This document shows, one piece after another, positions 2-20,372 of a stretch of DNA of 20,372 bases; the first letter of the stretch is position 1, and every line of letters begins with the position of its first letter. The notes below the pieces were generated by a model. That model was not told the origin of the DNA. It was given only the letters and a program-made list of their open reading frames with translations, and searched no databases. The DNA is taken from the NCBI GenBank assembly GCA_913020725.1, contig CAJWCD010000065.1, forward strand, positions 1 through 20,372, given 5' to 3'. The stretch is from an uncultured Pseudomonadota bacterium. Lineage in GTDB: Bacteria > SAR324 > NAC60-12. A program made the position numbers and the translations under genes.

Positions 2-1162
2 CTCAACCGTGGCGATGCCCACCGTGGGACACTGCCAGCCGGGCATTTCCTCGTAGGTCGGCTCGGCGGCCTCCACGTTCCGGGAGGGCAGCGTGGCGAC
101 AATTTCTCCGCTGGGAATCCGATAGCCCGTGGCAATCCGGAGGGTTTCCAGCGCATCCAGCACGTCGAGCTTGGTGACGGCGAGGCTGGTGATGCCGTTG
201 AGCCGCACGGCCTGTCGCACCAGTACGGCATCAAACCAGCCACAGCGCCGGGGTCGTCCGGTGGTCGCGCCGAACTCGCGGCCTTCCTTGCGCAGAAACT
301 CACCCGTTTCGTCAAAGAGTTCTGTGGGAAACGGCCCCGTGCCCACTCGCGTGGTGTAGGCTTTCACGATGCCCACTACATCCGTGATGCGTGTGGGGCC
401 GATGCCACAGCCTGTGCAAACTCCACCTGCCAAGGTGTTGGATGAGGTCACGAAGGGATAGGTGCCGTGATCCACATCGAGAAACGTGCCCTGCGCTCCT
501 TCAAAAAGCAGGTGCTTCCCGTCATCAATCATGTCGTTGACGAGGATTGAGGAATCAACCACATAAGTTTGGATCATTTCGTACTGCCGCTGGCACTCTT
601 CCAGAACCGGTTCCAGTTCAAAAGGAGGTTCGTCGGCCTCAAAATTCGTGAGCAGGCGGTTTTTCTCGGCAATCAGGAATTCGAGTTTCGAGCGCAGGTC
701 TACCGCATCTCCCAAGTCACCCACGCGCAAGCCTGCCCGTCCCACCTTGTCTGCATAGGTTGGGCCGATGCCGCGTCCGGTGGTGCCGAGCTTGTTTGTG
801 CCTCGCAAGACTTCCCGGAGTCGGTCGAAGGTTTTATGCCAGGGCATCACCACATGCGCTCGGTCGCTCACCTTTAGCGTGTCCTCGACCGCGATGCCCG
901 CCTTCCGGAGGTTGTCGATTTCCTGCGCCAAGCTGGCAACGTCCACCACCACGCCGTTGCCCAAGATCGAGGGCTTGCCCCGCAGGATTCCGGAGGGGAT
1001 GAGGTGGAGGATGAAGGTGCGATCCTCGAACATCACCGTGTGCCCAGCGTTTGCGCCTCCCTGATAGCGCACCACGGCATCCGCGTGTTCCGTCAGCAGG
1101 TCCACGATCTTGCCTTTGCCCTCGTCGCCCCACTGCGAACCGACCACCACCACACACGCCAT
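2..1162 (-). CDS. purA: Adenylosuccinate synthetase (3' end beyond window)
   Basis: Manual translation from ATG at 1162: MACVVVVGSQWGDEGKGKIVDLLTEHADAVVRYQGGANAGHTV...LHLIPSGI; later FEGAQGTFLDVDHGTYPFVTSS, EFGATTGRPRRCGWFD, TKLDVLD. Same frame continues to the window edge (…PTYEEMPGWQ…). Absent from the ORF track because it has no stop in the window. Confidence 0.98.
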   Translation of the reverse strand, partial: MACVVVVGSQWGDEGKGKIVDLLTEHADAVVRYQGGANAGHTVMFEDRTFILHLIPSGILRGKPSILGNGVVVDVASLAQEIDNLRKAGIAVEDTLKVSDRAHVVMPWHKTFDRLREVLRGTNKLGTTGRGIGPTYADKVGRAGLRVGDLGDAVDLRSKLEFLIAEKNRLLTNFEADEPPFELEPVLEECQRQYEMIQTYVVDSSILVNDMIDDGKHLLFEGAQGTFLDVDHGTYPFVTSSNTLAGGVCTGCGIGPTRITDVVGIVKAYTTRVGTGPFPTELFDETGEFLRKEGREFGATTGRPRRCGWFDAVLVRQAVRLNGITSLAVTKLDVLDALETLRIATGYRIPSGEIVATLPSRNVEAAEPTYEEMPGWQCPTVGIATVE

Positions 1163-1197
1163 GTCCGAAAAATCCCGTTAGAGTTACTGCTAAAAAC

Positions 1198-1273
1198 TCA
1201 CCACAGAGAGGCACAGGGTGCACAGAGAAAAATAAAAAAACAACCCTCTGCGCCCTCCGCACCTCTGCGGTGA
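1198..1273. repeat. REP-like imperfect inverted repeat built from CACAGAG/CTCTGCG units with an A-rich loop
   Basis: Left arm TCACCACAGAGAGGCACAGGGTGCACAGAG (1198-1227); reverse complement of right arm (1246-1273) is TCACCGCAGAGGTGCGGAGGGCGCAGAG; loop AAAAATAAAAAAACAACC. On the minus strand the hairpin is followed by GTTTTT. Confidence 0.75.
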
Positions 1274-1279
1274 ATCAAA

Positions 1280-2089
1280 TTACCGAGCCAGTTCCTTGGC
1301 TCGTTGATAGGCTTTTTGCAAGCCCTCTTGCAGGTGCTGCCCCACGGCTTGCGACTCGAAATGCGTCACTGCCGCCTCGGTGGTTCCTCCCGGCGAGGTC
1401 ACTTGCCGCCGTAGGGTTGCTGCCGAAACGCCTTTTTGCTCCCAGAGCAAGATAGCCCCCCGCAGCGTTTTTTGCACCAGCGTTTGCGCTGCCGATTCTG
1501 AAAACCCCAAATCTTGCGCTGCCACCATCATCTGTTCGGCAAGGTAAAAAACGTAGGCGGGTCCACTTCCGGAAACCGCCGTTGCCGCGTCAATCGCGTC
1601 CTCGTGGTCCACCTCCAAGCACGTTCCACACGCACCAAAAACCGCCTGCACTTGCTTGCGACTGGCTTCCGGAACCGCAGGATCGGCGTAAACGACAGTC
1701 ATGCCTTCCCCAAGTTGCGCGGGCGTGTTGGGCATGGTCCGGACGAGGCGCTCGTGCCCCAGTCCGTTCCTCAGCGTGGTCAAACTGATGCCCGCCATCA
1801 CGGACACCACGGTCTGCTCCGGAATCAGATGAGACCGGAGTTCTGCCAGCACCAATGGCGCTCCCTGCGGTTTGGTCGCGAGTAGCAGCAGTTCGTATTC
1901 GGAAACACGCCCGTCCATTTTGGACTGCACGGCGCATCCAGTTGCTTCCGAGAGGGCTGCGGCTTTTTCGGCTTCCGGCTCGACGAGCAGCAATCGTTCC
2001 GCAGGCACGATCCCCTGCGAGACCACCGCCCGCAGGATCGCACCTCCCATGTTGCCACCGCCAATCAGCGCCAGCGAGGCTCTTTCCAT
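1280..2089 (-). CDS. proC: Pyrroline-5-carboxylate reductase
   Basis: IGGGNMGGAI Rossmann motif, KPQ, RTMPNTP, TAVSGSGPAY, VTSPGGTT; 269 aa. Confidence 0.97.
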   Translation of the reverse strand: MERASLALIGGGNMGGAILRAVVSQGIVPAERLLLVEPEAEKAAALSEATGCAVQSKMDGRVSEYELLLLATKPQGAPLVLAELRSHLIPEQTVVSVMAGISLTTLRNGLGHERLVRTMPNTPAQLGEGMTVVYADPAVPEASRKQVQAVFGACGTCLEVDHEDAIDAATAVSGSGPAYVFYLAEQMMVAAQDLGFSESAAQTLVQKTLRGAILLWEQKGVSAATLRRQVTSPGGTTEAAVTHFESQAVGQHLQEGLQKAYQRAKELAR

Positions 2090-2199
2090 ACGTTTTCCAA
2101 GAAGTTGTACACGCTCACAGCTTAGCAGTTCCTGACCAAGATTCCAGTAGAAAACCAGCGGAGTTTGACTTCTCCGGACACCTCTGGTGTGCTAGTCCC

Positions 2200-3018
2200 A
2201 TGATATCCACGACCCCACCTGTTGAACTGAATCTGCCCCATCCGCAGGGTTTCCTGTACTTTGTTGCGGATTCTCACCTCGACACTCAGGACGCTCCGTG
2301 GGATGAGTTCGTCACTATGCTGGATGCGCTTCCGGACGCCCATGCCCTGATCTGCCTGGGAGACCTCTTCAAGGTCTGGCTGGCGCACCCGAAGTTTTGG
2401 GTGAAAATGCACGAGGAGGTGATGGCGGGATTCGCTAGGTTGCGGGAACGGACGGCGGCGGTAGCTTTTGTGGTCGGCAATCGGGAGGTGCTGGTTCCCG
2501 GCAACGCTCGCAGCTCGGACCGCGACGCCCTCCCCTTCACCCACATCGCACATGACGAACTGCGACTGCACTGGGGACCGCGCACCTACCGCTGCTTTCA
2601 CGGAGACACGCTCAACACACGGGATCGGCAGTACCTGCGCTGGCGGACCATCTGTCGGAGTCGCCTGTTCACGGGTTTTTTCCGGAACCTTCCCGGACCA
2701 CTCGCCCGCAAGATCGCAGACCGCGTTGAGGCCAGTCTCAACCACACCAACCGCGAATTCAAGATCGTCTTTCCGGAAGACGAAGTCGAACACTTCGCCG
2801 CGCAAGTTCTGCCCGGAACCGACGGCACCTTCATCGGGCATTTCCATCTCGACCGCGAAATCCGCATCTCCGACTGTGACGCGACCCTCCGGATTGTTCC
2901 GGACTGGCTGGCACAACGCACCGTGCTGCGACTGGATGCAGAAGGTCAAATTGAGCGATTGCGGTTTGCAGACGGGCAGTGGTCAAGCCCTCTAAATGAT
3001 CAAGACTCTGGAGCGTAA
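2200..3018 (+). CDS. lpxH: UDP-2,3-diacylglucosamine diphosphatase (LpxH-like metallophosphoesterase)
   Basis: Calcineurin-like motifs ADSHL, LGDLF, GNRE (Arg in place of His is typical of LpxH), HGD..D.QY..WR, GHFH. Start placed at ATG 2200; the track's 1855 start overlaps proC. Confidence 0.8.
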   Translation: MISTTPPVELNLPHPQGFLYFVADSHLDTQDAPWDEFVTMLDALPDAHALICLGDLFKVWLAHPKFWVKMHEEVMAGFARLRERTAAVAFVVGNREVLVPGNARSSDRDALPFTHIAHDELRLHWGPRTYRCFHGDTLNTRDRQYLRWRTICRSRLFTGFFRNLPGPLARKIADRVEASLNHTNREFKIVFPEDEVEHFAAQVLPGTDGTFIGHFHLDREIRISDCDATLRIVPDWLAQRTVLRLDAEGQIERLRFADGQWSSPLNDQDSGA

Positions 3019-3734
3019 GGGATCATGCCTTCCGGAATGGTGAAATCCAGCGGAACTCCCGAGGTTACAGGAAATACAACCTCCGTGAAGGCCAGCACGA
3101 GACGATTGTGGTCAAGTGCCTCAGTGATGAAAACTTTGCGAGGAAAGGACTGTCCGGAAAACGTTTGATAGCCGGAGATTCGCACCGTGTATTTCTCGAG
3201 GCCGTCCACCGCTTTCGTCAGCGTTTGCAAGTGACTGGACTCGTCGAGGGTGATGCGGAGAGTTGCGGATTCACGCTGGAGGGTTTGCGCTCCTGTATCC
3301 GCACCGATCACCTGCCATCCGGACATCGATGGCTCTGGAATACGCCCGCGCACGATCCATCCCAGTTCCTCCAAGGACAAATCCATCCCCAGCCACTCCT
3401 GCCGGACTTCCGGGGTGTTCTCGTCCAGCCAGTAGCGAGATTCTTGATGGTTCAGCACCAGAAAACGCTTCGGATCGCTACGCAACTCGTAGAGCAATGA
3501 CCCCACCAACGGTGCGAAAATTTGCAAGCGGAGGTGGTTGTCCGGACTCAGTTCAAGCGCCAATTCACCGGTGTGTTTTTCGCCACCGACGGCAAGGAGG
3601 ATGCGCCCCGAAGCGCGGAGATGTCCGGAGGAAAGTGAGGAACTTGGGATTTGGGGAGGAGCAGGGGTACGGCACCCTGCAATTAGGAGGATGCCGATAA
3701 AGAGAACGAGAACGCCACGCAGGCGGGGCTTCAC
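3000..3734 (-). CDS. Lipoprotein, LolB-like / DUF4292-like fold
   Basis: GTG start, basic N-terminus, hydrophobic stretch and lipobox LIAG-C; LQIFAPLVGSLL and WLGMDLSLEELGWIVRG resemble LolB-family segments. Overlaps the lpxH 3' end by 19 nt (convergent). Confidence 0.6.
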   Translation of the reverse strand: MKPRLRGVLVLFIGILLIAGCRTPAPPQIPSSSLSSGHLRASGRILLAVGGEKHTGELALELSPDNHLRLQIFAPLVGSLLYELRSDPKRFLVLNHQESRYWLDENTPEVRQEWLGMDLSLEELGWIVRGRIPEPSMSGWQVIGADTGAQTLQRESATLRITLDESSHLQTLTKAVDGLEKYTVRISGYQTFSGQSFPRKVFITEALDHNRLVLAFTEVVFPVTSGVPLDFTIPEGMIPYAPES

Positions 3735-3832
3735 GCCTTGTCCTGTAGGAACACCTTCTCGACAACGTAGAACAGTGCGAGGTAGAGGGTGCCCAGAACA
3801 AAGACCGTGACCAGAACGTTCATTTCATGCAT
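3731..3832 (-). CDS. 33-aa single-pass membrane microprotein (MHEMNVLVTVFVLGTLYLALFYVVEKVFLQDKA)
   Basis: GGAG 8 nt before ATG 3832; about 19-residue hydrophobic core; TGA stop overlaps the GTG start of the lipoprotein (GTGA). Confidence 0.7.
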   Translation of the reverse strand: MHEMNVLVTVFVLGTLYLALFYVVEKVFLQDKA

Positions 3833-3882
3833 CGTTTCAACTCCGAGATTGGATTGGATTGACAAGCAATCGTAATTCTGGA

Positions 3883-3911
3883 GTTATACAGGATTCGGCC
3901 TTAAGATTCAA
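3883..3911 (-). promoter_or_regulatory. Candidate sigma70 promoter for the microprotein-lipoprotein operon
   Basis: Minus strand TTGAAT-N17-TATAAC about 50 nt upstream of ATG 3832; the -10 lacks the conserved final T. Confidence 0.35.
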
Positions 3912-3944
3912 TCTCTTCCCGCAATCAAAGATTTTCCGCTCCAG

Positions 3945-4862
3945 ATGACCCAATCCGAAACCACCACTGGGCTGCTCTATGCCGTGCTGTGCTACAGCTT
4001 CTGGGGTTTCGTCCCGCTCTACTGGAAACTCTTTGGCACCCTGCCTGTCATCGAGATTCTTGCCCACCGGATGGTTTGGTCGCTTGCTTTTGTGCTGGGG
4101 ATACTGGCAGTGCAGGGGCGCTTTCAGGAACTTCGGGAGGCATTGTTTCCCTCCAAACAACTCCTCATCCTTCTCACCACTGCAGTCCTGATCACCTGCA
4201 CCTGGAGCCTCTACGTTTACAGCGTTCTCACCGATCAGGTCATTGAAACCAGCATCGGCTTCTACATCAATCCACTCGTGAGCATCATGTTCGGCTTCCT
4301 TTTCCTCAAGGAGCGGCTCAACCATTGGCAAATGCTGGCAATTGTCCTTGTGTTTGCTGGAGTGGCGAACCTCGTCTGGAATTTCGGAACATTACCGTGG
4401 ATTGCACTGGGGCTCGCTTTCAGTTTCGGACTTTACGGACTGCTCCGGAAAATCGCGCCCGTTGCCCCGCTGATTGGCTTGACAGTCGAAACCCTGTTGC
4501 TCACCCCCGTTGCTTTGCTGGCCATCGGTTACTGGGTTTGGGACGGCTCCAGTCATTTTGGCAAAGGTGAGTGGCTCGATCTGCTCTACCTCGGCTCCGG
4601 AATCGTCACCGCCCTTCCGCTGCTTTGGTTTGCCAACGCTGCCAAGCGCTTGCGGCTCTCCACGGTCGGGCTCTTCCAGTACCTTGCCCCCAGCATCCAG
4701 TTGATCCTCGCCATTCACTTCTACCACGAACCCTTCACCTCTACCCATCTGGTTACTTTCGGTTGCATTTGGGCCGCGCTCGCCCTCTACTCCGGGAACT
4801 CGATTCTAGAAAACCACCGACTCCGTGTTGCCAAGGCGCGAACGAGCGTGGCGCTAATGTAG
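3945..4862 (+). CDS. rarD: EamA/DMT-family transporter RarD
   Basis: WGFVPLYWK, EILAHRMVWS, SIGFYINPLV, SFGLYGLLRK, GLFQYLAPS; about 10 TM segments; 305 aa. Confidence 0.93.
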   Translation: MTQSETTTGLLYAVLCYSFWGFVPLYWKLFGTLPVIEILAHRMVWSLAFVLGILAVQGRFQELREALFPSKQLLILLTTAVLITCTWSLYVYSVLTDQVIETSIGFYINPLVSIMFGFLFLKERLNHWQMLAIVLVFAGVANLVWNFGTLPWIALGLAFSFGLYGLLRKIAPVAPLIGLTVETLLLTPVALLAIGYWVWDGSSHFGKGEWLDLLYLGSGIVTALPLLWFANAAKRLRLSTVGLFQYLAPSIQLILAIHFYHEPFTSTHLVTFGCIWAALALYSGNSILENHRLRVAKARTSVALM

Positions 4863-4983
4863 GGGCTGCGGTTCAGATGGAATGAACCTGCTTCTCATTG
4901 ATGTCAAGTGCTGGTGCAAAGGCAGTCATTGCCATCCGTCACATAACCCACGATAATGGACGAGCGTTTGCACGGATTGACAC

Positions 4984-6231
4984 ATGCCTATCTTTCACTA
5001 CCAAGCCCTTGACCCCAGCGGCACCCTGCACAAGGGTAGCCAGGACGCGACCACAGAAACCGAGGTGCGGCAGTTTCTGCGTGAAAAGCAGTGGTTCCCC
5101 ACCGAAATCCGGACAAGCCGTTTTACGTTCTCGCATCGGAAATCCGGGAGCGCCTCGAAAACGTCTTTCAAGCTGCCCAAGCTCTTCAGTCGCAGCAACC
5201 ACCAACGCTCACTGACGTTGTTTACCCGGCAGATCGAGGTGCTGCTGGATGCGACGATTCCCTACGACAAGGCGTTCCAACTCATCATCCCGCAAACGCA
5301 GGATCCCAAATTCCAGAGCATCCTTTCCGATGTCCGGGGTCGTGTGGTGGAAGGAAAATCGCTTGCCGGTGCGATGGCTCAGCATCCGGAAGCGTTTCCG
5401 GCGATGTATGTGAGCATGGTGCGCTCCGGGGAGAACGGCGGCACCCTTGGTGTGATTATGCGGCGGCTGGCGGAGTACTTTGAGCAGCGGGAGCAACTCC
5501 GGGGGCGGCTACGTTCTGCGATGATCTATCCTGCATTCATGACCGTCTTCGGAATCGCGGTGGTCGCGTTCATGGTGACGGCGGTGGTGCCCAAAATCGC
5601 GCAAATCTTCGAGGCGCAGGAAGCGGCCCTGCCCTTGCCCACTCGGATCCTACTTGGTCTCAGCGAGATGGTGACCCAACACTGGTGGGCACTGCTGCTC
5701 GGATTTGGACTGATTGCCACAGGATTTTCCACGTTCTGGAAGAGTCCGATCGGACAACGCTGGCAGGATCGGCTGGAGTTGACCCTTCCGGGGCTGAGTC
5801 AGCTGCGCATCAAGATTCTGGTCGCCCGCTTTTGCCAAACGCTGGGGCTGCTGCTGAAAAGCGGGGTGGACCTCAAGACGGCACTGGAAATCTCGAAGTA
5901 TGTGGTTGTCAACCGCAACTTCATTGCCCGACTCGACCAACTCATCATTGATGTCCACAACAAGGGAATGCCGCTCTCGGCAGCAATGGCGAGGATTGAA
6001 CTCTTTCCGGAATACGTCCGCCATGTCGTTGCCATCGGCGAGGAGGCGGCGCGGCTCGACGAACTGCTGGAACGGGTTGCGGAGCGGATGCAGGAGGAAA
6101 TCGGTGGGCTGCTGGAAGGACTCACCGCACTGCTGCAACCCGCCCTGATCCTGCTCATGGGTGGAGTGGTGGGCTTTATTGCGCTGGCGGTGTTACTGCC
6201 AATGCTCTCCATGAATCAGCTTTTGAGGTAG
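4984..6231 (+). CDS. gspF: Type II secretion / type IV pilus inner-membrane platform protein (GspF/PilC)
   Basis: MPIFHYQALDPSG start, FTRQ, EGKSLA.AM..HP..FP.MY.SMV.SGE..G.L, AMIYP, LPLPTRIL, IGEE, LLQPALI..MG.VV..I.LA.LLP; 415 aa. Confidence 0.92.
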   Translation: MPIFHYQALDPSGTLHKGSQDATTETEVRQFLREKQWFPTEIRTSRFTFSHRKSGSASKTSFKLPKLFSRSNHQRSLTLFTRQIEVLLDATIPYDKAFQLIIPQTQDPKFQSILSDVRGRVVEGKSLAGAMAQHPEAFPAMYVSMVRSGENGGTLGVIMRRLAEYFEQREQLRGRLRSAMIYPAFMTVFGIAVVAFMVTAVVPKIAQIFEAQEAALPLPTRILLGLSEMVTQHWWALLLGFGLIATGFSTFWKSPIGQRWQDRLELTLPGLSQLRIKILVARFCQTLGLLLKSGVDLKTALEISKYVVVNRNFIARLDQLIIDVHNKGMPLSAAMARIELFPEYVRHVVAIGEEAARLDELLERVAERMQEEIGGLLEGLTALLQPALILLMGGVVGFIALAVLLPMLSMNQLLR

Positions 6232-6309
6232 CCGCTGGTTCATTTCCGAATTGCAATTCTGGAAAAGATGCGTTCTTCTTGAAGAAAGCTCACCTGCGAC
6301 AAAACGACA

Positions 6310-6771
6310 ATGCGAGTACTCCAAGGGCTGCTGCTGTTGGCCCTACTCCTGCCCGCGAGCCTCTGCGCGGAAGAAATCGGCAGCGTGGACACGGTGTTCA
6401 AGCTCATTGGTCCTGACCACAAAATCGTCATCGAGGCGTTTGACGATCCGGTGGTGGTGGGTGTCGCCTGCCACCTCAGCCGCGCCAAGCAGGGCGGGAT
6501 CACTGGTGCCTTGGGCTTGGCGGAAGACACGTCTGACGCCTCCATCGCCTGTCGGCAGATTGGCCCCATTCACTTCAAACGCGAATTCAAGAACGGAGAA
6601 GAAGTCTTTAGCAAGCGCACCTCGCTGGTTTTCAAGACCCTGCAGGTGGTGCGTTTTCTCGACAAAAAGCGTAACGTGCTGATTTACTTGGTGTACAGTG
6701 ACAAGCTTGTTGAGGGCAGCCCCAAGAACTCGATTTCCACCGTTCCCATCATGCCGTGGAAGAATCCGTAG
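6310..6771 (+). CDS. creA: CreA family exported protein
   Basis: Signal peptide then [57 protein letters not shown]...[15 protein letters not shown]. Confidence 0.95.
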
Positions 6772-6799
6772 CCTTTTGGAAAAATCTGCAACTGTGAAC

Positions 6800-6829
6800 T
6801 TGACGTAGCTGTCCCAACTTTGCTAACGT
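6800..6829 (+). promoter_or_regulatory. Candidate sigma70 promoter (extended -10)
   Basis: TTGACG (6800-6805), N18 ending in TGC, TAACGT (6824-6829); upstream of the 6895 small ORF. Confidence 0.5.
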
Positions 6830-6894
6830 GAACTTAACTTCCGGATTGTCCAACAATGATTCGGACTTCCCAACATCCCCACCGAGACTGATCT

Positions 6895-7056
6895 ATGCGC
6901 ATCGTGATCCTCGTCGTCATCGGACTGCTCTCCTATTTCGTTGTCTTCCTGCCCGGCTACTTCCTACTGGTGCCTCGTGATCCCGATCTGACTTACGAAG
7001 AGGCAATGACGCCAGAGCCGATGCCCCTGCCTGCTGATTCCGCAGTAAATCAGTAG
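6895..7056 (+). CDS. 53-aa membrane-anchored small protein (MRIVILVVIGLLSYFVVFLPGYFLLVPRDPDLTYEEAMTPEPMPLPADSAVNQ)
   Basis: ATG 6895 to TAG 7056; 24-residue hydrophobic N-terminus followed by an acidic, Pro-rich tail; fills the gap downstream of a promoter-like motif; weak RBS. Confidence 0.6.
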   Translation: MRIVILVVIGLLSYFVVFLPGYFLLVPRDPDLTYEEAMTPEPMPLPADSAVNQ

Positions 7057-7146
7057 AGGTCGTTTGTCTTTGCAGGCTTTTCCGAAGCTTGCTCCGCTGG
7101 GGGTGCCTGCCCCCAATCTCCTCACCCTCGTTCATGGAGAATGCCC

Positions 7147-7434
7147 ATGTCGATTCATCTGGAATTCAAGAACGTCCGCAATTCTGAAGCAGTAACCACC
7201 CACGTTCACGAGCTTTTCCGGGAACTGATCCAAATCACGGAGGATCGGTTTGCTTTCCATGTGAGTATGAGCAAGCTTAACGAACAACACCAAGTCCACA
7301 TCAACTGCACCTACAACCAGAAAAAGCTCGCCAGCAGTGCAGAACATGTCAACCTCTACAAGGCGCTTTCCAAAGGCGTTGATGCCATGAGAACCCAAGT
7401 GATCCGCAAATCGGAGCGGGCACGGGCTGCCTGA
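7147..7434 (+). CDS. Ribosome hibernation factor HPF/RaiA-like protein (short form, divergent)
   Basis: About 95 aa; IHLEFKNVRNSEAV..HV...LASSAEHVNLYKALSKGVDAMRTQVIR fits the HPF/YfiA pattern. GGAGA lies 6 nt before ATG 7147, whereas ATG 7141 abuts the SD. Confidence 0.7.
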   Translation: MSIHLEFKNVRNSEAVTTHVHELFRELIQITEDRFAFHVSMSKLNEQHQVHINCTYNQKKLASSAEHVNLYKALSKGVDAMRTQVIRKSERARAA

Positions 7435-7447
7435 TCACCTCACTCTC

Positions 7448-7470
7448 CGGCCCGCCCCAACGGCGGGCCG
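7448..7470 (+). terminator. GC-rich stem-loop after the HPF-like gene
   Basis: CGGCCCGCC-CCAAC-GGCGGGCCG perfect 9-bp stem; only a weak U tract follows (CATTTCC). Confidence 0.5.
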
Positions 7471-7511
7471 CATTTCCACGTCAACCGTTCACCATAAACA
7501 TGGAAGATCGC

Positions 7512-7592
7512 ATGATGAAGTTGGTGGTCGCTGGGGCGGTCATCCTTGTGTTTTTCGCTGTCCTCCGCTGGTCCGGACTCTTCGACGGTTGA
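7512..7592 (+). CDS. 26-aa single-pass membrane microprotein (MMKLVVAGAVILVFFAVLRWSGLFDG; alternative start 7500 adds MEDR)
   Basis: GGAAG before ATGATG; 15-residue hydrophobic core flanked by K and RW; TGA 7590-7592 ends 6 nt from the convergent SDR stop. Confidence 0.5.
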   Translation: MMKLVVAGAVILVFFAVLRWSGLFDG

Positions 7593-7598
7593 GTCCTC

Positions 7599-8375
7599 TC
7601 ACATTGCGCTGAGGCCACCGTCGAGCACAAGCTCACTTCCGGTCATCAGCCGGGATTCCTCGGAGGCAAGATAGAGGACGGCATGTGCGACATCTTCGGG
7701 CTTGCCGACTATTCCCAACGGAATCTGGCGGGCGAGTTTGGCGAGCAGTTCTTCCCGAGATTGGTCGCCTTGAAAAGTGTCGAGAATGGGGGTGTCAATG
7801 AAGACCGGCAGGATAGCGTTGCAGCGAATCCCGGTGCGCTCGCGGGCGCAGTGCAGGGCAACAGAGCGGGTGAGGTGCCGAACCGCCGCTTTGGCGGAGT
7901 TGTAAGCCGCCGTGTTGGGCGCGGCAACGAGTCCAGAGATTGAGGCGATGTTGACCACCGCTCCACCCCCGCTTTTCCGCAGATGCGAAATCGCGTACTT
8001 GCAGCCGAGAAACACGCTGTCCAGATCAACCGCGTGAACCCGTCGCCATTCCTCCAAGCTGAGATCCTCCACACTCCCCAAGGAGGCGATTCCGGCGTTG
8101 TTGACCAGAATGTGCAATCCGCCAAAGTGGGACACCGCCTGTGACAAAACTTCCTGCCATTGCAATTCCTGAGTGACATCGTGTTCCAAGGCAAGTGCCA
8201 CTGCACCCAACGAATCCGCCACCTCCCGGACCTTGGGGCCGTTGATGTCTGTGAGGACTACTCGTGCGCCCTCACGCACCAGCATTCGTGCGATTGCCTC
8301 ACCCAGTCCTTGGGCGGCTCCGGTGATGAGCGCAGTTTTGCCTGCGACTCGTCCTGATTGATTTGGTGCCGTCAT
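7599..8375 (-). CDS. Classical SDR oxidoreductase (3-beta-HSD / cyclopentanol dehydrogenase-like)
   Basis: TGAAQGLG, NNAGI, NIASISG, YNSAK catalytic motif, TGSELVLDGG; AGGAG upstream; 258 aa. Confidence 0.92.
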   Translation of the reverse strand: MTAPNQSGRVAGKTALITGAAQGLGEAIARMLVREGARVVLTDINGPKVREVADSLGAVALALEHDVTQELQWQEVLSQAVSHFGGLHILVNNAGIASLGSVEDLSLEEWRRVHAVDLDSVFLGCKYAISHLRKSGGGAVVNIASISGLVAAPNTAAYNSAKAAVRHLTRSVALHCARERTGIRCNAILPVFIDTPILDTFQGDQSREELLAKLARQIPLGIVGKPEDVAHAVLYLASEESRLMTGSELVLDGGLSAM

Positions 8376-8557
8376 CTCATCTCATCTCCTGTTTGTGAAC
8401 ATTGGGAAGTTTTCCCCGATTGCCTTGCGAGGACAAGACGAATCCACAGCCCGGTGGTGATTTGCGGCCAAGCCTGAGCTAGAATTGTAGTTTACTTCAT
8501 GGTTGCACGAATCTTGAAACGGTTTTTTTAGCTCACCTTTTCACGAGAAAAAGAAAA

Positions 8558-8986: not shown

Positions 8987-9102
8987 CCGTCATCAGCGGC
9001 AAAGCATTGTCGCAGGCGATCCGGTTGCACAACTTCATCCATGCGGCCTAAGCTTGTCGGAATCTAACATGTTTCATTCTTCCTTAAAACCGGACTCGGC
9101 CC

Positions 9103-13375: not shown

Positions 13376-13489
13376 TAAAGGAAGTGCATGAGAAAAAAAT
13401 GAACCCAATATGATAGCCCATGGTCCCAAACGCCACAAGCAGAACTGGCAGGCTGGGCTGGGAATGCCCCGTTAGCACTGGGGAGGCTC

Positions 13490-13561
13490 CAACTCATCCA
13501 GAGAATACGGCACGAGCGGCACCGGACTTTCCCCATGTCCACGCAGGTCGTAGGACACGAA
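13490..13561 (-). pseudogene. Remnant of an alpha/beta-hydrolase gene (3-oxoadipate enol-lactonase-like)
   Basis: 24 codons FVSYDLRGHGESPVPLVPYSLDEL match the D-x-R-G-H-G-x-S…PYSxDxL segment; flanking sequence is not hydrolase-like and a stop follows within 6 codons. Confidence 0.65.
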
Positions 13562-13655
13562 AGTAGACCCTATCGGTAATAGAACCACCTGTGCTACACT
13601 GGGTAGGCACGACCAACACAGGAAGCCCCAATGATCAGCCACGCCAAGATTTCCC

Positions 13656-13861
13656 GCCACCAATCCACTGCTTCGCAGCTTCCGCCCCATCACACCGGGG
13701 TTTCTCCTGCCCATTCTCGTGCCGCTCTATGTCGCGTGGTTCTTCTACATGCTCCGTTTTACATGATGCCGTGGTTCTTGGGGTATTCCGTGATGGGCAT
13801 GCTCTCCTTCCCGCGCGAAGGCGAGATCGCCAGAGCCATCTACAAAGCGTTTTCTCCCTAG
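13656..13861 (+). pseudogene. 5'-truncated, frameshifted membrane protein gene remnant (YggT-like)
   Basis: Frame A: ATNPLLRSFRPITPGFLLPILVPLYVAWFFYMLRF then ACA TGA; frame B from 13760: YMMPWFLGYSVMGMLSFPREGEIARAIYKAFSP*. Adding one T to the TTTT at 13757-13760 joins them. No in-frame start upstream (TGA at 13632). Confidence 0.55.
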
Positions 13862-14002
13862 AGAAGCACTGGCATCTGGCCAAAGTGTGTGGTATTCCTT
13901 AACCCTGTCCAGCTTCTCAACCGCTTGCTGGAATGCAAGAATCGCAATTTAAGTTGCAATTTTTCACAAATCCGCTAATTTAGACAAGACTGGAGATGAG
14001 CC

Positions 14003-15937
14003 ATGAGTGAAGACACGATCCTAGAGGTTGCCAAGTCCTATCAAGGCAAGGCGTATCTAGACAACGACGCCTACCTGAAGTTGTACGAGGAGTCCATCCG
14101 GGATCCGGAGGGTTTCTGGGGGCGGCAGGCGGATCGCCTCGACTGGTCCCGGAAGTGGGACCGGGTGCTGGACTGGGATTACCACAAAGCGTACATCCGC
14201 TGGTTTGAGGGCGCCAAGCTGAATGTCTCCGCCAACTGTCTGGACCGCCATCTAGAAAAGCGCGGCGATCAAGTGGCCATCATCTGGGAGTCCGACGATC
14301 CGGGCGAGGATCGCAAGCTCACCTACCGCCAGCTTCATACTGAGGTCTGCAAGTTCGCCAATGTCCTCAAGGCGCAGGGTGTGAACAAGGGTGACCGGGT
14401 GTGCATTTACATGCCAATGGTTCCGGAAGCCGCCGTAGCGATGCTGGCCTGCACCCGTATTGGCGCGATCCACTCGGTGGTCTTCGGTGGTTTCTCTCCG
14501 GAAGCCCTCAAGGACCGCATCAACGATTCCGAGTGCTGTGTACTGATCACAGCCGATCAGAGCATCCGGGGCGGCAAGAAGGTTCCGCTCAAGACCAACG
14601 CCGATAAGGCGTGCGAATCCACGCCGAGCATTCAGAAAATGATTGTGGTGCAACGCGGCGGTGCTCCCGTAGAATGGCAGGAGGGCCGAGACGTTTGGTA
14701 TCACGAGGCCATGGCCAGTGCCTCCGCAGATTGCCCTGCCGAAGCAATGGATGCTGAGGATCCGCTCTTCATCCTCTACACCTCCGGGTCCACCGGAAAA
14801 CCCAAGGGCGTGTTGCACACCACCGCCGGGTATCTGCTCTACACCGCCATCACCCACCAGTACGTTTTCGACTACAAGGACGGTGACATCTACTGGTGCA
14901 CCGCAGATGTTGGCTGGGTCACGGGTCACAGCTACATCGTCTATGGGCCACTTGCCAACGGTGCGACTACGCTAATGTTCGAGGGCGTTCCAAACTATCC
15001 GGACTTCGGACGTTTCTGGGATGTGTGCGACAAGCATCAGGTCAACATCTTCTACACGGCTCCGACTGCGATCCGGGCGATTGCGAAGGAAGGTGACGCG
15101 TTAGTCAACAAGCGTGACCTCAGCAGCTTGCGGTTGCTGGGCACCGTGGGCGAACCGATCAATCCGGAAGCGTGGATGTGGTACCACCGGGTGGTCGGCA
15201 AGGAACGCTGCCCCATTGTGGACACTTGGTGGCAGACGGAAACGGGTGGCATCCTCATCACACCACTTCCGGGCGCAACCCGACTCAAGCCAGGATCGGT
15301 GACGCGACCGTTCTTCGGAGTACAGCCGATGCTGGTGGATGAGAATGGCAAGGAACTGGAAGGCGCAGCCTCCGGAAATCTTTGCATCAAGCATCCGTGG
15401 CCCGGACAGATGCGTTCGATTTATGGCGACCATGAGCGCTTCTTCCAGACCTATTTCAGCACCTACAAGGGGTACTACTTCACTGGCGATGGTTGCCGAC
15501 GTGACGAAGACGGCTATTACTGGATCACCGGGCGGGTGGATGATGTCTTGAACGTCTCCGGACACCGCATGGGCACAGCGGAAATCGAGTCCGCGCTGGT
15601 GCTGCACGAAAATGTGGCCGAGGCTGCCGTTGTCGGCTGTCCACACGAAATCAAGGGACAAGGCATCTACGCGTATGTCACCCTGAATTCGGGGGTGGAA
15701 GCCACTGAGGATTTGAGGAAAGGGTTGATTCAACTCGTCCGCACGGAGATTGGCCCAATCGCAACGATTGACATTCTCCAGTGGGCACCGGGCTTGCCGA
15801 AGACGCGCTCCGGAAAGATCATGCGCCGCATTCTGCGCAAGATCGCCGAGAACGAGTTGAGCAACCTAGGCGACACCTCCACGCTGGCGGATCCGTCGGT
15901 CGTGGAGGATTTAGTGGCCAACCGTCCCGCCGTCTGA
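14003..15937 (+). CDS. acs: Acetyl-CoA synthetase (acetate--CoA ligase)
   Basis: [76 protein letters not shown]; 644 aa. Confidence 0.97.
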
Positions 15938-15952
15938 ACCGACACCCTCCTT

Positions 15953-15983
15953 AACCCCCGGATGTTTTCCGGGGGTTGGTTTT
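15953..15983 (+). terminator. Probable intrinsic terminator after acs
   Basis: AACCCCCGGA-TGTTT-TCCGGGGGTT 10-bp stem followed by GGTTTT. Confidence 0.65.
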
Positions 15984-16067
15984 CCGAAACCATCTTCAAT
16001 TTCAGTCATCTCCTGAGTGATCCGGAGCAGTATTTTTTCTTTCACCCAAACCAAACAAGGAACACAA

Positions 16068-16826
16068 ATGAATATCAAGGATAAAGTCATTGTCATCACT
16101 GGCGGGGGACGAGGACTCGGCAAGGCGTTCGCCCTAGATTTGGCCGATCGTGGTGCAAAGCTGGCATTGGCAGATGTGGATCAGGAAAATCTAGAACGCG
16201 TCAAGAACGCGTGCGAAGCCAATGGTGCAGAAGCACGGACTTATGTTGTGAACGTCACCAATGAAACTCAGGTGGTGCAGTTCTTTGATGATGTGGTTGC
16301 AGATTTCGGCACGGTGGATGGCCTCATCAACAATGCGGGCATCACCCGGGACGGTCTGCTTGTGCGACGCAAGGAAGGCAAGACCTCCAAAATGTCGCTG
16401 GAGAATTGGCAGCAAGTGATTGACGTCAACTTGACCGGAAGTTTCCTCTGCGGACGCGAGTTTTTCGCCAAACTCATCGAGCAGGAAAAGCCGGGGGTGT
16501 GCATCAACATTTCCAGCCTTTCACGCTCCGGCAACATGGGCCAGAGCAACTACACCGCCACCAAGGCTGGAATCGCAGAAATGACCGTGACTTGGGCCAA
16601 GGAGCTTTCACGCTACGGCATCCGAGTTGGCGCCATCGCCCCAGGTTACATCAACACCGAAATGGTTGCAGCGATTCGTGAGGACGTGAAGCAGAAAATC
16701 ATTGACCAAGTGCCACTCAAGCGACTCGGCAATCCCAGTGAGATCAGCCACACAGCAGTCTACATTCTCGAAAACGATTACTTCACTGGGCGCGTCATCG
16801 AGTGCGATGGCGGCTTGCGCATCTAA
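16068..16826 (+). CDS. fabG: FabG-like 3-oxoacyl-(CoA/ACP) reductase, probable PhaB-role SDR
   Basis: AAGGAA RBS, ATG 16068; TGGGRGLG, NNAGITRDG, NISS, GQSNYTATKAG, APGYINTEM, GRVIECDGGLRI. Confidence 0.8.
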   Translation: MNIKDKVIVITGGGRGLGKAFALDLADRGAKLALADVDQENLERVKNACEANGAEARTYVVNVTNETQVVQFFDDVVADFGTVDGLINNAGITRDGLLVRRKEGKTSKMSLENWQQVIDVNLTGSFLCGREFFAKLIEQEKPGVCINISSLSRSGNMGQSNYTATKAGIAEMTVTWAKELSRYGIRVGAIAPGYINTEMVAAIREDVKQKIIDQVPLKRLGNPSEISHTAVYILENDYFTGRVIECDGGLRI

Positions 16827-16859
16827 CCGTCCCCTTACCCCCAACCGGAGTTTCCAAGC

Positions 16860-18584
16860 ATGTCCACAGAAACGGATACTAAACAACCCCTCGATCAATT
16901 TCAGGAAATGTGGGGCCAGTTCGCCTCCCAAGCGGAAATGCCGTCCTCCGATCCGATGGGTGCGATGTAATCGTTGCAACGCGTGGCCGAGGCTTGGGCA
17001 AACAACCCCCAAGACCTCAGCAACACCATGCGCTCGTGGACGGAAAAGCTGACCGCGACCAATCAACAGATTTGGCAGGATTCCCTCAACCAGCGTCCAG
17101 ATCAACTGGTCGATGAAAAAGGGACTCCGGATTGGTCGAAACTCCCCTACTTCAAATGGATCCGGGAGTACTACCAAACCTATTCCGGATGGATGGAAGA
17201 GAGCATCCAGCAAGCTTCGGTGGAGGATTCGGTGAAGCGTGACGCGATCTTCTGGTCTAAGCAGATGCTCAGTGCGCGCTCTCCGGACAATTACTTCTGG
17301 ACCAACCCTCTGGCGATCAACAAGTTTGTGGAGACCGAAGGAGAGAGCCTACGCGCGGGGCTGCAAAACTGGCTGGAGGATACGAGCAAAGGAGATGGGC
17401 TTCCGGCGACGGTGGACAAAACTCCGTTCAAGGTGGGGGAAACGCTGGCAAACACACCAGGAAAGGTGGTTTGCCGCAACGAGTTGATGGAGTTGATCCA
17501 ATACTCGCCGCTGACCGACACGGTGTACGAGAAGCCGCTTGTGATCACACCTCCATGGATCAACAAATACTACATTCTCGACTTGGCTCCGAAGAAGAGT
17601 TTCATCCGCAACCTTGTCTCAAAAGGCCACACGGTCTTTGTGGTGAGTTGGAAGAATCCCACAGCGGAAATGCGTGAGGTCGGGATGGACGACTACTTGA
17701 TGCAAGGTCCGGTGACGGCATTGGAGGTGGCACAACAAATCACCGGAGCCAAGCAGGTTCACGCGGTTGGCTACTGCATCGGCGGCACTCTGCTCGCCTC
17801 AGCAATGGCATGGTTCAACCATCCGGACAACTTGAAGACGAACCCCGTAGAGGATTGGACGTTGTTGACCTCCCTCGTTGATTTTGAGCATCCCGGAGAC
17901 TTGGGAGTGTTCATCAACGAGGATACGCTGAAGCACCTTGAGGAAACCATGGCAGAGCAGGGTTATCTGGACGGCAAACAGATGGGCACGACCATGCGGA
18001 TGCTGCGTCCGGTAGAGTTAATCTGGTACTTCTTCATCAACAACTACCTCTACGGCAAACAGCCTCCGTCCATTGACATGCTCTTCTGGAATGATGATTC
18101 CACGCGTATGCCGGAGGCGATGCACAAGTTTTACTTGCGCCAGTACTACCTGCACAACAAACTGCGCGAATCCGATGGTGTCACACTGGCCGGACATCCC
18201 ATCGACTTACGCCGCATCAAGCAGCCGCTCTATTGCGTTGCGGCGGAAGAGGATCACATCACGCCGTGGACGCAGGTGTACCAGATCAACAAGCTGGTGC
18301 AAGGGCCGGTGCGCTTCATGCTCTCGACCTCCGGGCACATCGCCGGGGTCGTCAATCCTCCGGTGGACCCGCCCAAGCGTAGCTACTGGACGGGAGACGG
18401 GGATGCCGAACTCGCTCCGGAAGCGTGGCAGGCTCAGCAAAAGAAGGTGAAGGATTCTTGGTGGAACAACTGGGCAGTCTGGTTGGGCGAACGGAGCGGC
18501 AAGCAGGTCAAGCCTCCCAAGCTCGGCAGTTCCAGGTACAAACCACTCGCCGATGCCCCCGGAACCTACGTTTTGGAACCGTGA
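16860..18584 (+). pseudogene. phaC: Class I poly(3-hydroxyalkanoate) synthase interrupted by an in-frame TAA at codon 37 (16968-16970)
   Basis: GGAG then ATG 16860: MSTETDTKQPLDQFQEMWGQFASQAEMPSSDPMGAM*SLQRVAEAWANNP, in frame with the 16974-18584 ORF carrying SPDNY.WTNP, PPWINKYYILDL, GYCIGG, FWN.D, EEDHI, SGHIAG, DAPGTYV. Family call is near certain; pseudogene status is not. Confidence 0.8.
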
Positions 18585-18674
18585 CTTTTGTGCCCGTTTG
18601 GTCTAAAATATGGAGTTCGAGTGGGACGAGGGCAAACGCTGAAATGTACTGAAACTACACCCTTGAGAGGAAAG

Positions 18675-20372
18675 ATGGGCTACCAAGAGGAATACCGGGA
18701 ATCAATCGAGCAGCCGGAGCAGTTCTGGCGGCGACAGGCGGAGCAAATCGCGTGGTACGAGTTTCCGCAGAGCATCCTCACGCAGAATGAGCGCGGCTAC
18801 CACTGCTGGTTTCAGGGGGGCAAGCTCAACAGCAGCTACCTCGCACTGGACCATCACGTTGAGGCCGGGCGTGGCGGCCAACTCGCGCTGATTTACGATT
18901 CCCCCGTCACCGATTCCCAGCGCAAGTTCACTTTCACAGAATTGCGTGACGAGGTGGCCAAGTTCGCCGGAGTGTTGCGAGCACAGGGCGTGGAGCAGGG
19001 GGATCGCGTGATCATCTACATGCCGATGATCCCGGAAGCCGCAGTGGCGATGCTCGCCTGCGCGCGGCTTGGGGCGGTCCACTCGGTGGTCTTCGGCGGC
19101 TTTGCTCCCAACGAACTCGCGCTCCGCATTGACGATGCCAAACCCAAGGCGCTCGTGACCGCCTCGTGCGGGATCGAATTCACCAACGTGATTGAGTACA
19201 AACCACTAGTGGATGAGGCACTCCAAATCGCCAAACATCCCCCACAGACCATCGTCCTCCTGCAACGTCCACAATCACAAGCCGCGCTGCAATCTGGACG
19301 CGACCACGACTGGGATGAGCTAATGACCTCGGCCTCCCCCGCCGATCCGGTTCCCGTCGCTGCGACCGATCCGCTCTACATCCTCTACACATCCGGAACC
19401 ACCGGACGGCCCAAGGGTGTTGTCCGTGACAACGGCGGACACGCGGTCGCGCTCAAGTACAGCATGAAGACCGTGTACAACACCGACCCCGGAGATGTTT
19501 ATTGGGCCGGGTCGGACGTGGGCTGGGTGGTCGGTCACTCCTACATCGTCTATGCCCCGCTGCTGCACGGTTGCACCACCATCCTCTACGAGGGCAAGCC
19601 CGTCCGGACTCCGGACGCAGGCGCGTTCTGGCGGGTGATTGCCGAACACAAAGTGACCACCTTCTTCACCGCACCGACTGCGTTCCGCGCCATTAAGAAG
19701 GAGGATCCGGAGGCGAAGCTCAAGACGCAGTACGACATCAGTTGCCTGCGCACCCTCTTCCTCGCAGGCGAGCGGCTGGACCCGCCGACCTACGATTGGT
19801 TGATGGGGATCATGGACGTGCCTGTGATTGACCACTGGTGGCAAACGGAAACCGGCTGGCCGATCTGCTCCAATCCAATGGGGCTGGAACCGCAACCCGT
19901 GAAAACCGGATCACCGACTTTTGCAATGCCCGGATACGATGTGCGAATTTTGGACGAAGCGGGGCAACCCTGCCAGCCCGGAGAAACGGGCAACATCGCG
20001 GTCAAGCTGCCCCTCCCACCAAGCTGCCTGCCAACGCTCTGGGAGGACGACCAACGCTTCCGGGAATCCTACCTCTCGCAATTCCCCGGATACTACCAAA
20101 CAGGCGATGGCGGTTTGATCGACGAGGACGGTTATGTCTATGTGATGGGCCGCGTGGACGATGTCATCAATGTCGCAGGGCACCGCCTCTCCACTGGACA
20201 GATGGAAGAACTGATCGGCTCTCATCCGGCGGTCGCAGAATGCGCGGTGGTCGGCATTGACGATGAGTTGCGCGGACAGGTTCCAGTGGGTTTTGCGGTT
20301 CTCAAGGATGGGGCAGCACTGGATCAAGCACAGATGCAGCAGGAATTGGTGAGCATCATCCGCAAGGAAATT
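18675..20372 (+). CDS. prpE: Propionyl-CoA synthetase / acetate-propionate CoA ligase (3' end beyond window)
   Basis: GAGAGGA RBS, ATG 18675: MGYQEEYRESIEQPEQFWRRQAEQIAW…LIYDSPVT…GGFAPNELA.RIDDA.PK; YTSGTTGRPKGVVRDNGGHAVAL, LFLAGERLDP, DHWWQTETGWPI, LPLPP; frame consistent to the window end. Confidence 0.9.
   Translation, partial: MGYQEEYRESIEQPEQFWRRQAEQIAWYEFPQSILTQNERGYHCWFQGGKLNSSYLALDHHVEAGRGGQLALIYDSPVTDSQRKFTFTELRDEVAKFAGVLRAQGVEQGDRVIIYMPMIPEAAVAMLACARLGAVHSVVFGGFAPNELALRIDDAKPKALVTASCGIEFTNVIEYKPLVDEALQIAKHPPQTIVLLQRPQSQAALQSGRDHDWDELMTSASPADPVPVAATDPLYILYTSGTTGRPKGVVRDNGGHAVALKYSMKTVYNTDPGDVYWAGSDVGWVVGHSYIVYAPLLHGCTTILYEGKPVRTPDAGAFWRVIAEHKVTTFFTAPTAFRAIKKEDPEAKLKTQYDISCLRTLFLAGERLDPPTYDWLMGIMDVPVIDHWWQTETGWPICSNPMGLEPQPVKTGSPTFAMPGYDVRILDEAGQPCQPGETGNIAVKLPLPPSCLPTLWEDDQRFRESYLSQFPGYYQTGDGGLIDEDGYVYVMGRVDDVINVAGHRLSTGQMEELIGSHPAVAECAVVGIDDELRGQVPVGFAVLKDGAALDQAQMQQELVSIIRKEI

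Follow-up and report, generated by a model that had tools for sequence, protein, structure and literature searches.

A highly iterated TCCGGA palindrome in SAR324 bacteria follows a helical spacing rule whose sign differs between relatives

Copies of the palindrome TCCGGA recur throughout the genome of an uncultured bacterium (G000) that the names of its homologues place in SAR324, and close neighbours are arranged according to the helical phase of the DNA. Only TCCGGA and CCCGGA/TCCGGG, out of 1,904 hexamer classes, show a clear phase rule. Among relatives the phase axis is fixed while its sign flips, with four genomes avoiding and at least four preferring neighbours on the same face. We think it somewhat probable that TCCGGA (and, more weakly, CCCGGA/TCCGGG) is a weakly selected site of a putative protein with two-fold symmetry and a predicted bending effect on the chromosome. 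On this reading the word works like the cyanobacterial palindrome HIP1, yet is not HIP1. What highly iterated palindromes do has been a question for 30 years, and a neighbour rule this strong at 10.5 bp points to physical occupancy of duplex DNA and not to a by-product of coding or repair. The setting also provides a natural experiment, since the word emerged within a single SAR324 clade next to a sister genus (g3) that is not enriched, and the sign of the rule differs even among species of one genus. The same pair-distance test can be applied to HIP1 as well.

The stretch analysed here (the window; 20,372 nucleotides) contains 56 exact TCCGGA sites, the first at 136 and the last at 19706-19711, which is 9x the 6.2 expected from base composition. 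Eleven of them extend to TTCCGGAA; this number and the earlier count of about 56 both proved exact on recount. The window is real DNA, with at least half of its sampled words present in 18 of the 23 runs listed, one of which is possibly its source. Sites occur in genes of both strands and in all three frames, and five lie outside gene calls (2173, 3624, 6840, 7572 and 16021), confirming the frame independence and intergenic copies of the original prediction. Genome-wide, TCCGGA is the top-ranked hexamer, with 7,675 copies in 3,446,541 bp (2.23/kb, or about one per 450 bases) and a density of 1.2-3.0 per kb across all 125 contigs longer than 10 kb. This corresponds to 7.35x the expectation from base composition and 3.37x that of a Markov-2 model (5.6x for TTCCGGAA), while a Markov-4 model gives 1.00x, the count being fully accounted for by multiplying the half-sites TCCGG and CCGGA. 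The enrichment persists at 3.42x against a synonymous shuffle within genes (3.66, 1.88 and 4.32 by frame) and reaches 5.0x in intergenic DNA, so that it is limited neither to one frame nor to the window. Given that the fold varies with the control, the predicted ten-fold excess is a crude figure: a strong excess over base composition stands, of which about 3.4-4x survives coding controls. Across a control set of 80 loci from distant taxa, gathered with Acs, the observed/expected ratio (O/E) of TCCGGA was 1.02.

Pair distances between TCCGGA copies in G000, for which the original prediction had proposed a test of periodicity, proved to be periodic. The fitted period was 10.52 ± 0.04 bp, with minima at phase 0.25 ± 0.27 and a decay of 86 bp, and copies avoid whole helical turns. 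Within genes, we counted 24 same-face pairs against 172 expected from independent occupancy, and 313 opposite-face pairs (no depletion) against 246, using windows that were chosen after inspection of the histogram. The mean cosine was -0.264, compared with -0.106 ± 0.015 in 200 within-gene shuffles, and the positions at which the encoded proteins permit TCCGGA had a flat spacing distribution. Same-face avoidance was seen in every class of distance modulo 3, in pairs across gene borders (1 same-face, 15 opposite) and in pairs between genes (5 and 21). Control words gave a ratio of 1.02 within genes, although their ratio for border-crossing pairs was also low (0.6; 19 and 37). The effect is highly specific (TCCGGA, z=-23.6; CCCGGA, z=-13.9; next class, z=-3.7), and a generic shape effect of YYYRRR words was rejected because just two of the 27 classes scored showed it. 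Even spacing at a set-point density was likewise rejected, as the coefficient of variation of the gaps was 1.06 with an excess of long gaps. At long range, for distances of up to 30 kb on the same contig (the longest contig being 92 kb), pair ratios remained at 0.95-1.04.

Both signs of the rule were found among relatives when YCCGGR pairs were counted over whole genomes in spacing windows of 31-33, 36-38 and 41-43 bp. Same-face neighbours are avoided in G000 (67/259/82), G001 (19/213/32), G002 (52/174/68) and G014 (181/398/227), and preferred in G019 (230/35/139), G023 (48/9/35), G006 (239/90/237) and G020 (371/283/410). The quarter-turn windows were about equal in seven of these eight genomes, G006 being the exception. 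The two signs occur within one genus and even between sister species, with the word itself unchanged.

With regard to divergence, selection fits better than biased gain for the closest relative, and does not for the more distant one. At four-fold sites, the comparison of G000 with G002 gave log-likelihoods of -397 for selection, -413 for loss only and -429 for gain only, with lowered loss and raised gain of TCCGGA both present. Against G001, gain only (-909) was better than selection (-922); since G001 has fewer sites and a higher GC content, the stationarity assumption is broken in that comparison. Conservation of sites in relatives, which the original prediction proposed to test, is therefore seen against G002 and not against G001. 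These models, which take non-motif sites as neutral, would put selection on each site at roughly 0.2-2.9 log-odds, with most values near 2.

In the reading that we favour, the putative protein would occupy TCCGGA sites on the chromosome. Its footprint would exceed about 10 bp, because pairs 7-10 bp apart are free (73 observed, 75 expected genome-wide) and those 11-13 bp apart are depleted. Two sites on the same face may add their bends or touch one another, and it is possible that such summed bends or contacts carry a fitness cost in this genus and are favoured in genus g12. A chromosome-organising protein had been among the original suggestions, and it gains support from the helical-phase rule, but no candidate tracks the motif. 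The one that we consider, a ribbon-helix-helix (RHH) protein (G000:C1:54785-55057), is weak. It is family-wide and its distribution fails to follow the motif: the non-enriched genera g3 and g8 have it with identical predicted strand residues, and no copy was found in the moderately enriched G012 or G008. Structure prediction gave a poor model of the monomer (pTM 0.41), its matches to known folds are weak (E of at least 0.5), and no conserved TCCGGA operator was seen upstream of the gene. The length of its linker before the C-terminal helix correlates with phase (Spearman -0.78 in 14 genomes, a post hoc comparison in which kin are not independent): same-face pairing is strong where the protein has no tail and weak at 14-15 residues, and avoidance accompanies 16-23 residues. 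That this protein reads TCCGGA, with linker length tuning same-face attraction or repulsion as a helical-phase code across the marine SAR324 chromosome, seems to us quite doubtful. If true, it would identify what reads a highly iterated palindrome and provide a case of protein geometry shaping genome composition.

Other potential readers fared no better. An antitoxin-like RHH protein on contig C121 was rejected, having matches in just 3 of 41 genomes, and so was HU/IHF copy number, which is three in enriched genomes and likewise in the non-enriched G004 and G015. No histone fold was found in G000, and codon bias proved too weak to single out abundant proteins. We picked 120 loci on viral contigs by their TCCGGA triplets; 17 of these reached a density of 1.2 sites/kb or more together with an O/E of at least 4, several of them owing to tandem repeats. 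The viral contigs and G000 had just 8 scattered proteins in common, with no plausible reader among them. One locus of this viral set (L318) does not display the palindrome-avoidance pattern of the host genus.

That some viral contigs are TCCGGA-rich also speaks for the word being a methylation mark. In this unlikely alternative, an orphan alpha-class amino-methyltransferase (G000:C49:18035-19339) would, after a shift in specificity, place m4C or m6A at TCCGGA, selection would maintain the mark as a signal of self or for uptake, and the phase rule would stem from a nuclease, uptake protein or similar reader that acts on two sites. In this enzyme NPPY comes after motif I, with SPPY in its place in most orthologues, and HIP1 is linked to methylation-dependent transformation in the available text of PMC13756078. 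Matches to the gene were present in 36 of 41 SAR324 genomes, but these include non-enriched ones, and no clade-specific signature was seen when 21 aligned orthologues were compared by eye. Among its top family hits, none of which came near the cut-off, are tRNA methyltransferases. The uptake protein ComEC is present, although independently of enrichment, in all five genomes tested (three enriched, two not). When the called proteins of G000 were scanned crudely for motifs, no amino-methyltransferase besides this one appeared, and no C5-methyltransferase; searches of G000 returned no Eco57I-type enzyme and, for the N6_Mtase family, just a partial gene at a contig end. DndE was matched in none of five genomes, an uninformative negative given that control searches were equally without a match.

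A further, distinctly unlikely possibility is that TCCGGA is a neutral by-product of methylation-directed or biased repair, as in the GmeC ratchet of Elhai, with phasing produced by an enzyme that is blocked on one face of the DNA. The most frequent one-off variants of TCCGGA differ at the first or last base, as in that model in the available text of PMC4390886, and the G001 comparison was fitted by gain only. However, TCCGGA has no 5'-GC-3' step, and C5 methyltransferases were found neither in G000 (93% complete) nor in G001, G002, G014, G019, G020 and G023; matches in 14 of 41 genomes were patchy and did not follow enrichment. No Vsr was found in G000, nor is the bias limited to T-to-C changes as a Vsr-type signature would have it, transversions being biased as much as transitions. 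Reduced loss accompanies raised gain against G002, the stationary comparison, in which gain only fits worse than selection. Moreover, the 24 same-face pairs are fewer than the 49 expected were the second site simply to add nothing. The orphan methyltransferase with biased repair that had originally been proposed is thus not supported: these searches gave no C5 enzyme or Vsr, and the sole amino-methyltransferase is shared with non-enriched relatives.

It is also conceivable, though very unlikely, that no reader exists and that YCCGGR is intrinsically bent or flexible, with selection acting directly on the curvature of naked DNA. A-tracts, which are known intrinsic bends, dip in G000 at the same spacings as TCCGGA, and this fits selection against coherent curvature there; in genus g1, AA/TT steps show a weak preference for the face on which TCCGGA lies, which would cancel bends. 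Nonetheless, the restriction to two YYYRRR classes, a phase amplitude of 0.5-0.9 compared with 0.04-0.1 for A-tracts, and the opposite signs of sister species with an identical word all argue against it. The anti-phase of A-tracts is independent of the TCCGGA sign, as in G019, where TCCGGA is in phase and A-tracts are out of phase. That codon-pair usage, together with a strong avoidance of CCWGG and of palindromes of the restriction type, drives codons towards TCCGGA is scarcely credible and is already contradicted. In genus g1, CCWGG is indeed depleted 5- to 12-fold, as are many GC-rich palindromes, and CCCGGA/TCCGGG is one transition from CCWGG-containing words. However, G020 and G019, which do not avoid CCWGG (0.98 and 0.86), have an equally high excess; the excess also remains after the codon shuffle and in DNA between genes, and 10.5-bp phasing cannot arise from avoidance.

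The occupied, weakly selected word that we favour resembles HIP1 in being a short GC-rich palindrome at kilobase density that is frame-independent, extends between genes, is conserved at synonymous sites in the G002 comparison, shares its signal partly with one-off variants and has no known function. Its density falls inside the HIP1 range of 0.2-2.73/kb in the available text of Elhai (2015, PMC4390886) and Xu et al. (2018, PMC5861425). The predicted likeness to HIP1 is therefore supported for a frame-independent, genome-wide palindrome under weak selection, and fails for sequence and fold enrichment. HIP1 is GCGATCGC or its described variants in cyanobacteria, contains a GC step lacking in TCCGGA, for which we found no cognate methyltransferase, and its periodicity is 10-90 kb, whereas that seen for TCCGGA is helical, pairwise and of lineage-dependent sign. 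Highly iterated palindromes are enriched 16- to 317-fold under Markov-2, and the values for TCCGGA and TTCCGGAA are below the cut-off of >16-fold, which was defined for octamers (Xu et al. 2018, PMC5861425). Genomic 10-11 bp periodicity of dinucleotides and A-tracts is similar in that selection acts on spacing at the helical period and does so differently from lineage to lineage (Atzinger and Lawrence 2020, PMC7537859, where AIMS are also described). In that case dinucleotides fluctuate by about 2% and peak at integer multiples of the period. The variation in the present case is 50-90%, concerns one hexamer class, and consists of a deficit at whole turns whose sign is reversed in relatives.

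DNA uptake sequences, Chi and KOPS/AIMS are likewise short, over-represented, selected words read by proteins, but they are non-palindromic (Chi and KOPS are also strand-biased), whereas TCCGGA is palindromic and its copies interact pairwise by helical phase. MatP, which acts at matS, is a sequence-preferring nucleoid protein with an RHH fold. CdbA, an RHH nucleoid protein of Myxococcus xanthus, is a DNA-bending protein whose motif is matched 8,917 times, in the available text of PMC7156744. Both may serve as models for the putative reader, which would be symmetric, recognise thousands of chromosomal motifs, bend DNA and oligomerise through a C-terminal tail. The CdbA target differs in being a direct repeat one helical turn apart, and that part of PMC7156744 reports no compositional imprint on the genome.

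Within the window, the dispersed TCCGGA palindromes (136..19711) are accompanied over the same range by 41 one-off CCCGGA/TCCGGG sites, the class that follows the same phase rule genome-wide. The phase rule is not visible in the window alone, where YCCGGR pairs number 6 on the same face and 9 on opposite faces. The only TCCGGA pair at 11-69 bp (17126..17189) has a spacing of 58 bp, or 5.5 turns, and is thus on opposite faces; two closer pairs, at 10 bp (2888..2903) and 7 bp (19603..19615), have tolerated spacings. Among the intergenic copies, 2173..2178 is flanked by what we take to be proC-like and hydrolase-like genes, and 16021..16026 lies downstream of a presumably acetyl-CoA-synthetase-like gene (names suggested by the translations); 6840..6845 and 7572..7577 are also outside gene calls. 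Three one-off sites (1164..1169, 6245..6250 and 19293..19298) are TCCGGA in contigs from three other runs, and the TCCGGA at 17822..17827 is CCCGGA in a contig from one other run.

TCCGGA is the commonest hexamer of the source genome (G000; 3.45 Mb in 204 contigs, 93% complete), with 7,675 sites over the whole genome (2.23/kb), and its enrichment is real and genome-wide. Exact counting in the window, which is contig C65 of G000, gave 56 sites against 6.2 expected, 11 of which lengthen to TTCCGGAA, in agreement with the original prediction. The roughly ten-fold excess noted there holds for the window, but the genome-wide fold is lower (7.35 over base composition, 3.37 over Markov-2); against Markov-4 it is 1.00, meaning that the half-sites TCCGG and CCGGA, multiplied together, give the observed count. 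The excess survives codon-preserving shuffling: among the 3,046 genes from our own gene caller, those of at least 300 nt (n = 2,756) hold 6,975 sites, compared with 2,041 when synonymous codons are shuffled inside each gene. As had also been claimed, it extends to all three frames (3.66-, 1.88- and 4.32-fold over the shuffle) and to DNA between genes (593 sites vs. 119 expected). The 6,975 sites occupy a third of the 20,981 places that the proteins permit, where codon usage elsewhere predicts 1,699. T precedes CCGGA at 48–75% of four-fold sites vs. 12–18% overall, with transversions hit as much as transitions. Where 5-kb windows contain many palindromes that genus g1 (G000, G001 and G002) otherwise avoids, and so are probably recently acquired DNA, TCCGGA drops to 1.3/kb from 2.4/kb. 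Near start codons (−60 to +30), TCCGGA reaches only 1.2–1.4/kb vs. ~2.7/kb inside genes.

The periodicity check that had been suggested revealed a helical rule. The histogram of TCCGGA pairs in G000 is almost empty at 12–13, 20–23, 31–33, 41–43 and 52–53 bp; a damped cosine fits with a period of 10.52 ± 0.04 bp, a decay of ~86 bp and minima at whole turns (phase 0.25 ± 0.27). No comparable signal was present in nine unrelated control words, nor any such periodicity in the protein-permitted places. Using windows picked once the histogram was known, same-face pairs (whole turns apart) numbered 24 vs. 172 under independent occupancy (49 if a second site adds nothing, 6 if a pair cancels all benefit), opposite-face pairs (half a turn off) 313 vs. 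246, pairs at 11–13 bp 11 vs. 46, and pairs at 7–10 bp, which are unaffected, 73 vs. 75. The rule is present in every d mod 3 class and exceeds the shuffle inside genes (−0.264 vs. −0.106 ± 0.015). Same-face and opposite-face pairs number 1 vs. 15 across gene borders and 5 vs. 21 between genes; the control-word ratio is 1.02 within genes and 0.6 across borders, the latter from small counts. Only two of 1,904 hexamer classes clearly follow the rule, TCCGGA (amplitude −0.90, z −23.6) and CCCGGA/TCCGGG (−0.54, z −13.9); the third-ranked has z −3.7.

We counted TCCGGA in 41 genomes. With GC scaling that is rough (from 3–4 kb stretches for 30 of them), observed/expected ratios were 4–9 in genera g1, g2 and g12, about 3–3.6 in g5, 2–2.6 in g4 and g7, and 0.6–0.9 in g3. 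A single-gene tree (30 rows, excluding G019) placed g1, g2, g12 and g5 in one clade with g3 as sister (support 89/88, under the starred level). Pairs of YCCGGR were counted over whole genomes at 28–30/31–33/33–35/36–38/41–43 bp. Same-face pairs are avoided in G000 (142/67/132/259/82), G001 (106/19/74/213/32), G002 (114/52/95/174/68) and G014 (370/181/322/398/227). They are preferred in G019 (100/230/98/35/139), G023 (30/48/35/9/35), G006 (95/239/151/90/237) and G020 (322/371/308/283/410), and more weakly in G003 (236/246/216/218/305) and G013 (39/60/41/38/54). Counts are flat in G030, G040 and G022, and too scarce to read in many non-enriched genomes. Both signs occur inside g2. The quarter-turn windows (28–30 and 33–35 bp) are about equal in most phase-scored genomes, G006 and G016 (110 at 28–30 bp) excepted, so the axis stays at whole turns throughout while its sign varies. 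In 320 kb of G019, same-face pairs reach 3.4 times the far baseline with distinct spacers in 33/33, so repeats are not the cause; 392 kb of G001 hold 0 same-face and 19 opposite-face pairs.

The simplest reading, which we reach wholly by inference and consider somewhat probable, is occupancy by a protein. A word-specific, frame-independent interaction between palindromes, with a 10.5-bp period over ~85 bp, would reflect a symmetric protein sitting on the double helix and either bending the DNA or making contact with neighbouring copies along one face. The unaffected 7–10 bp spacings suggest that sites so close cannot both be bound at once. A fixed axis with variable sign would fit adding bends or touching proteins whose fitness effects are opposite between lineages.

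Among the alternatives, a methyl-mark system is improbable, if the best of them. G000 does carry one orphan amino-methyltransferase (C49:18035-19339), the sole one found, but this has matches in 36/41 genomes, enriched or not; no C5 methyltransferase, Vsr or Eco57I-type enzyme was detectable in G000, and C5 enzymes among relatives are distributed without relation to enrichment. The predicted orphan methyltransferase for TCCGGA is not supported by these searches. The amino-methyltransferase (also L001:514-2253) is alpha-class and kept vertically across SAR324; a lengthy run of low-complexity sequence lies at the N-terminal end of its G000 open frame. Separately, CCWGG and ~15 six-base palindromes of high GC content are depleted 5- to 12-fold in g1 (G000 genome-wide, G001 and G002 from samples), and G001 goes beyond this range; despite this, searches of all three g1 genomes returned no C5 methyltransferase.

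Biased repair, by which the sites would arise from mutation, is slightly less plausible still, and TCCGGA is probably selected. The proposed test in orthologues gave a divided answer. Between G000 and G002 (four-fold sites of 162 orthologues, 89% identical, similar TCCGGA density), mutation-selection fitted best (lnL −397) ahead of loss-only (−413) and gain-only (−429), and the first T was retained in 65/74 cases vs. 0.64 outside the motif. In the G001 comparison (250 orthologues), where the relative has fewer sites and higher GC, gain-only (−909) was slightly better than selection (−922), with stationarity failing. Among 37 population variants (40 of 228 rows, minus 3 from one divergent contig), 4 toggle TCCGGA, 3 of them toward it in other populations, too few to weigh.

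Intrinsic bending of the DNA itself is unlikely. G000 A-tracts do dip at the TCCGGA-depleted spacings (~10% in coding DNA), and the A-tract term at 11 bp is positive in two non-enriched relatives; however, it is also negative in non-enriched G033 and in G019, which makes the link loose. G000 A-tracts shun whole-turn spacings to ~105 bp, opposite to the usual bacterial pattern, with a like sign in G001, G002, G019 and G033. A compositional by-product is very improbable beside the synonymous-shuffle excess and the spacing rule.

For occupancy by a symmetric protein, a weak candidate reader is a conserved ribbon-helix-helix (RHH) gene at G000:C1:54785-55057 (L428:886-1158), matched in 20/24 other family members and 0/16 of the other family. 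Genes close by, from their translations, are presumably serA and one for the A subunit of a type II topoisomerase. The protein combines a basic arm at its N terminus with an RHH-like core (rmsd 0.6 Å to CopG over 35 columns) and a C-terminal helix; fold matches, CdbA and MatP among them, are weak (all E ≥ 0.5). The arm is invariant across the family, and the helix variable or absent (missing in g12). The linker before the helix has 23 residues in G001, 18 in G000 and G002, 16 in G014, and 14 in G003 and G020; its length correlates with phase ratio (Spearman −0.78, n = 14), a post hoc result with about three independent contrasts and one outlier (G005, 38 residues yet flat). Against the candidate, the predicted strand residues, placed by inference from a CopG alignment, are identical in non-enriched genera, and the gene was missed by an alignment search of G012 and G008. 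Histone folds, HU/IHF copy number and ComEC did not discriminate enriched from non-enriched genomes. Tandem histone-fold clusters in a 12-Mb SAR324 assembly (G007:C7 and C488; L233–L247) are probably eukaryotic contamination.

The original prediction of a HIP1-like palindrome stands as to working: TCCGGA behaves alike, yet it lies outside HIP1 by sequence, phylum and fold enrichment, as compared with the portions consulted of Elhai 2015 (PMC4390886), Xu 2018 (PMC5861425), Atzinger and Lawrence 2020 (PMC7537859), PMC13756078 and PMC7156744. Literature searches over a mostly open-access library found nothing relevant on TCCGGA as an iterated palindrome, SAR324 methylomes or helical-phase coupling of iterated palindromes. 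The geometric spacing rule is unusual, and its reader putative.

SAR324 is the name that homologues of a G000 gene bear in their own sources. At least half of the window's sampled words are present in 18/23 listed runs, mostly seawater metagenomes, one of which may be the source of the window. Six contigs of a viral collection (L321, L406, L326, L334, L318 and L309) carry TCCGGA at ~8–18 times base composition; from two of them, L334 and L309, CCWGG is missing too, as are most other GC palindromes. Two short intergenic stretches of the window (1190-1285 and 13490-13665), with many weak matches in related genomes or very high contig depth, are probably dispersed repeats. At 14003-20372, what we take from translations to be an acetyl-CoA-synthetase-like gene, a short-chain reductase and a PhaC-like PHA synthase stand in a row with a further long ORF resembling the first; on these names, the row is possibly a PHA operon.
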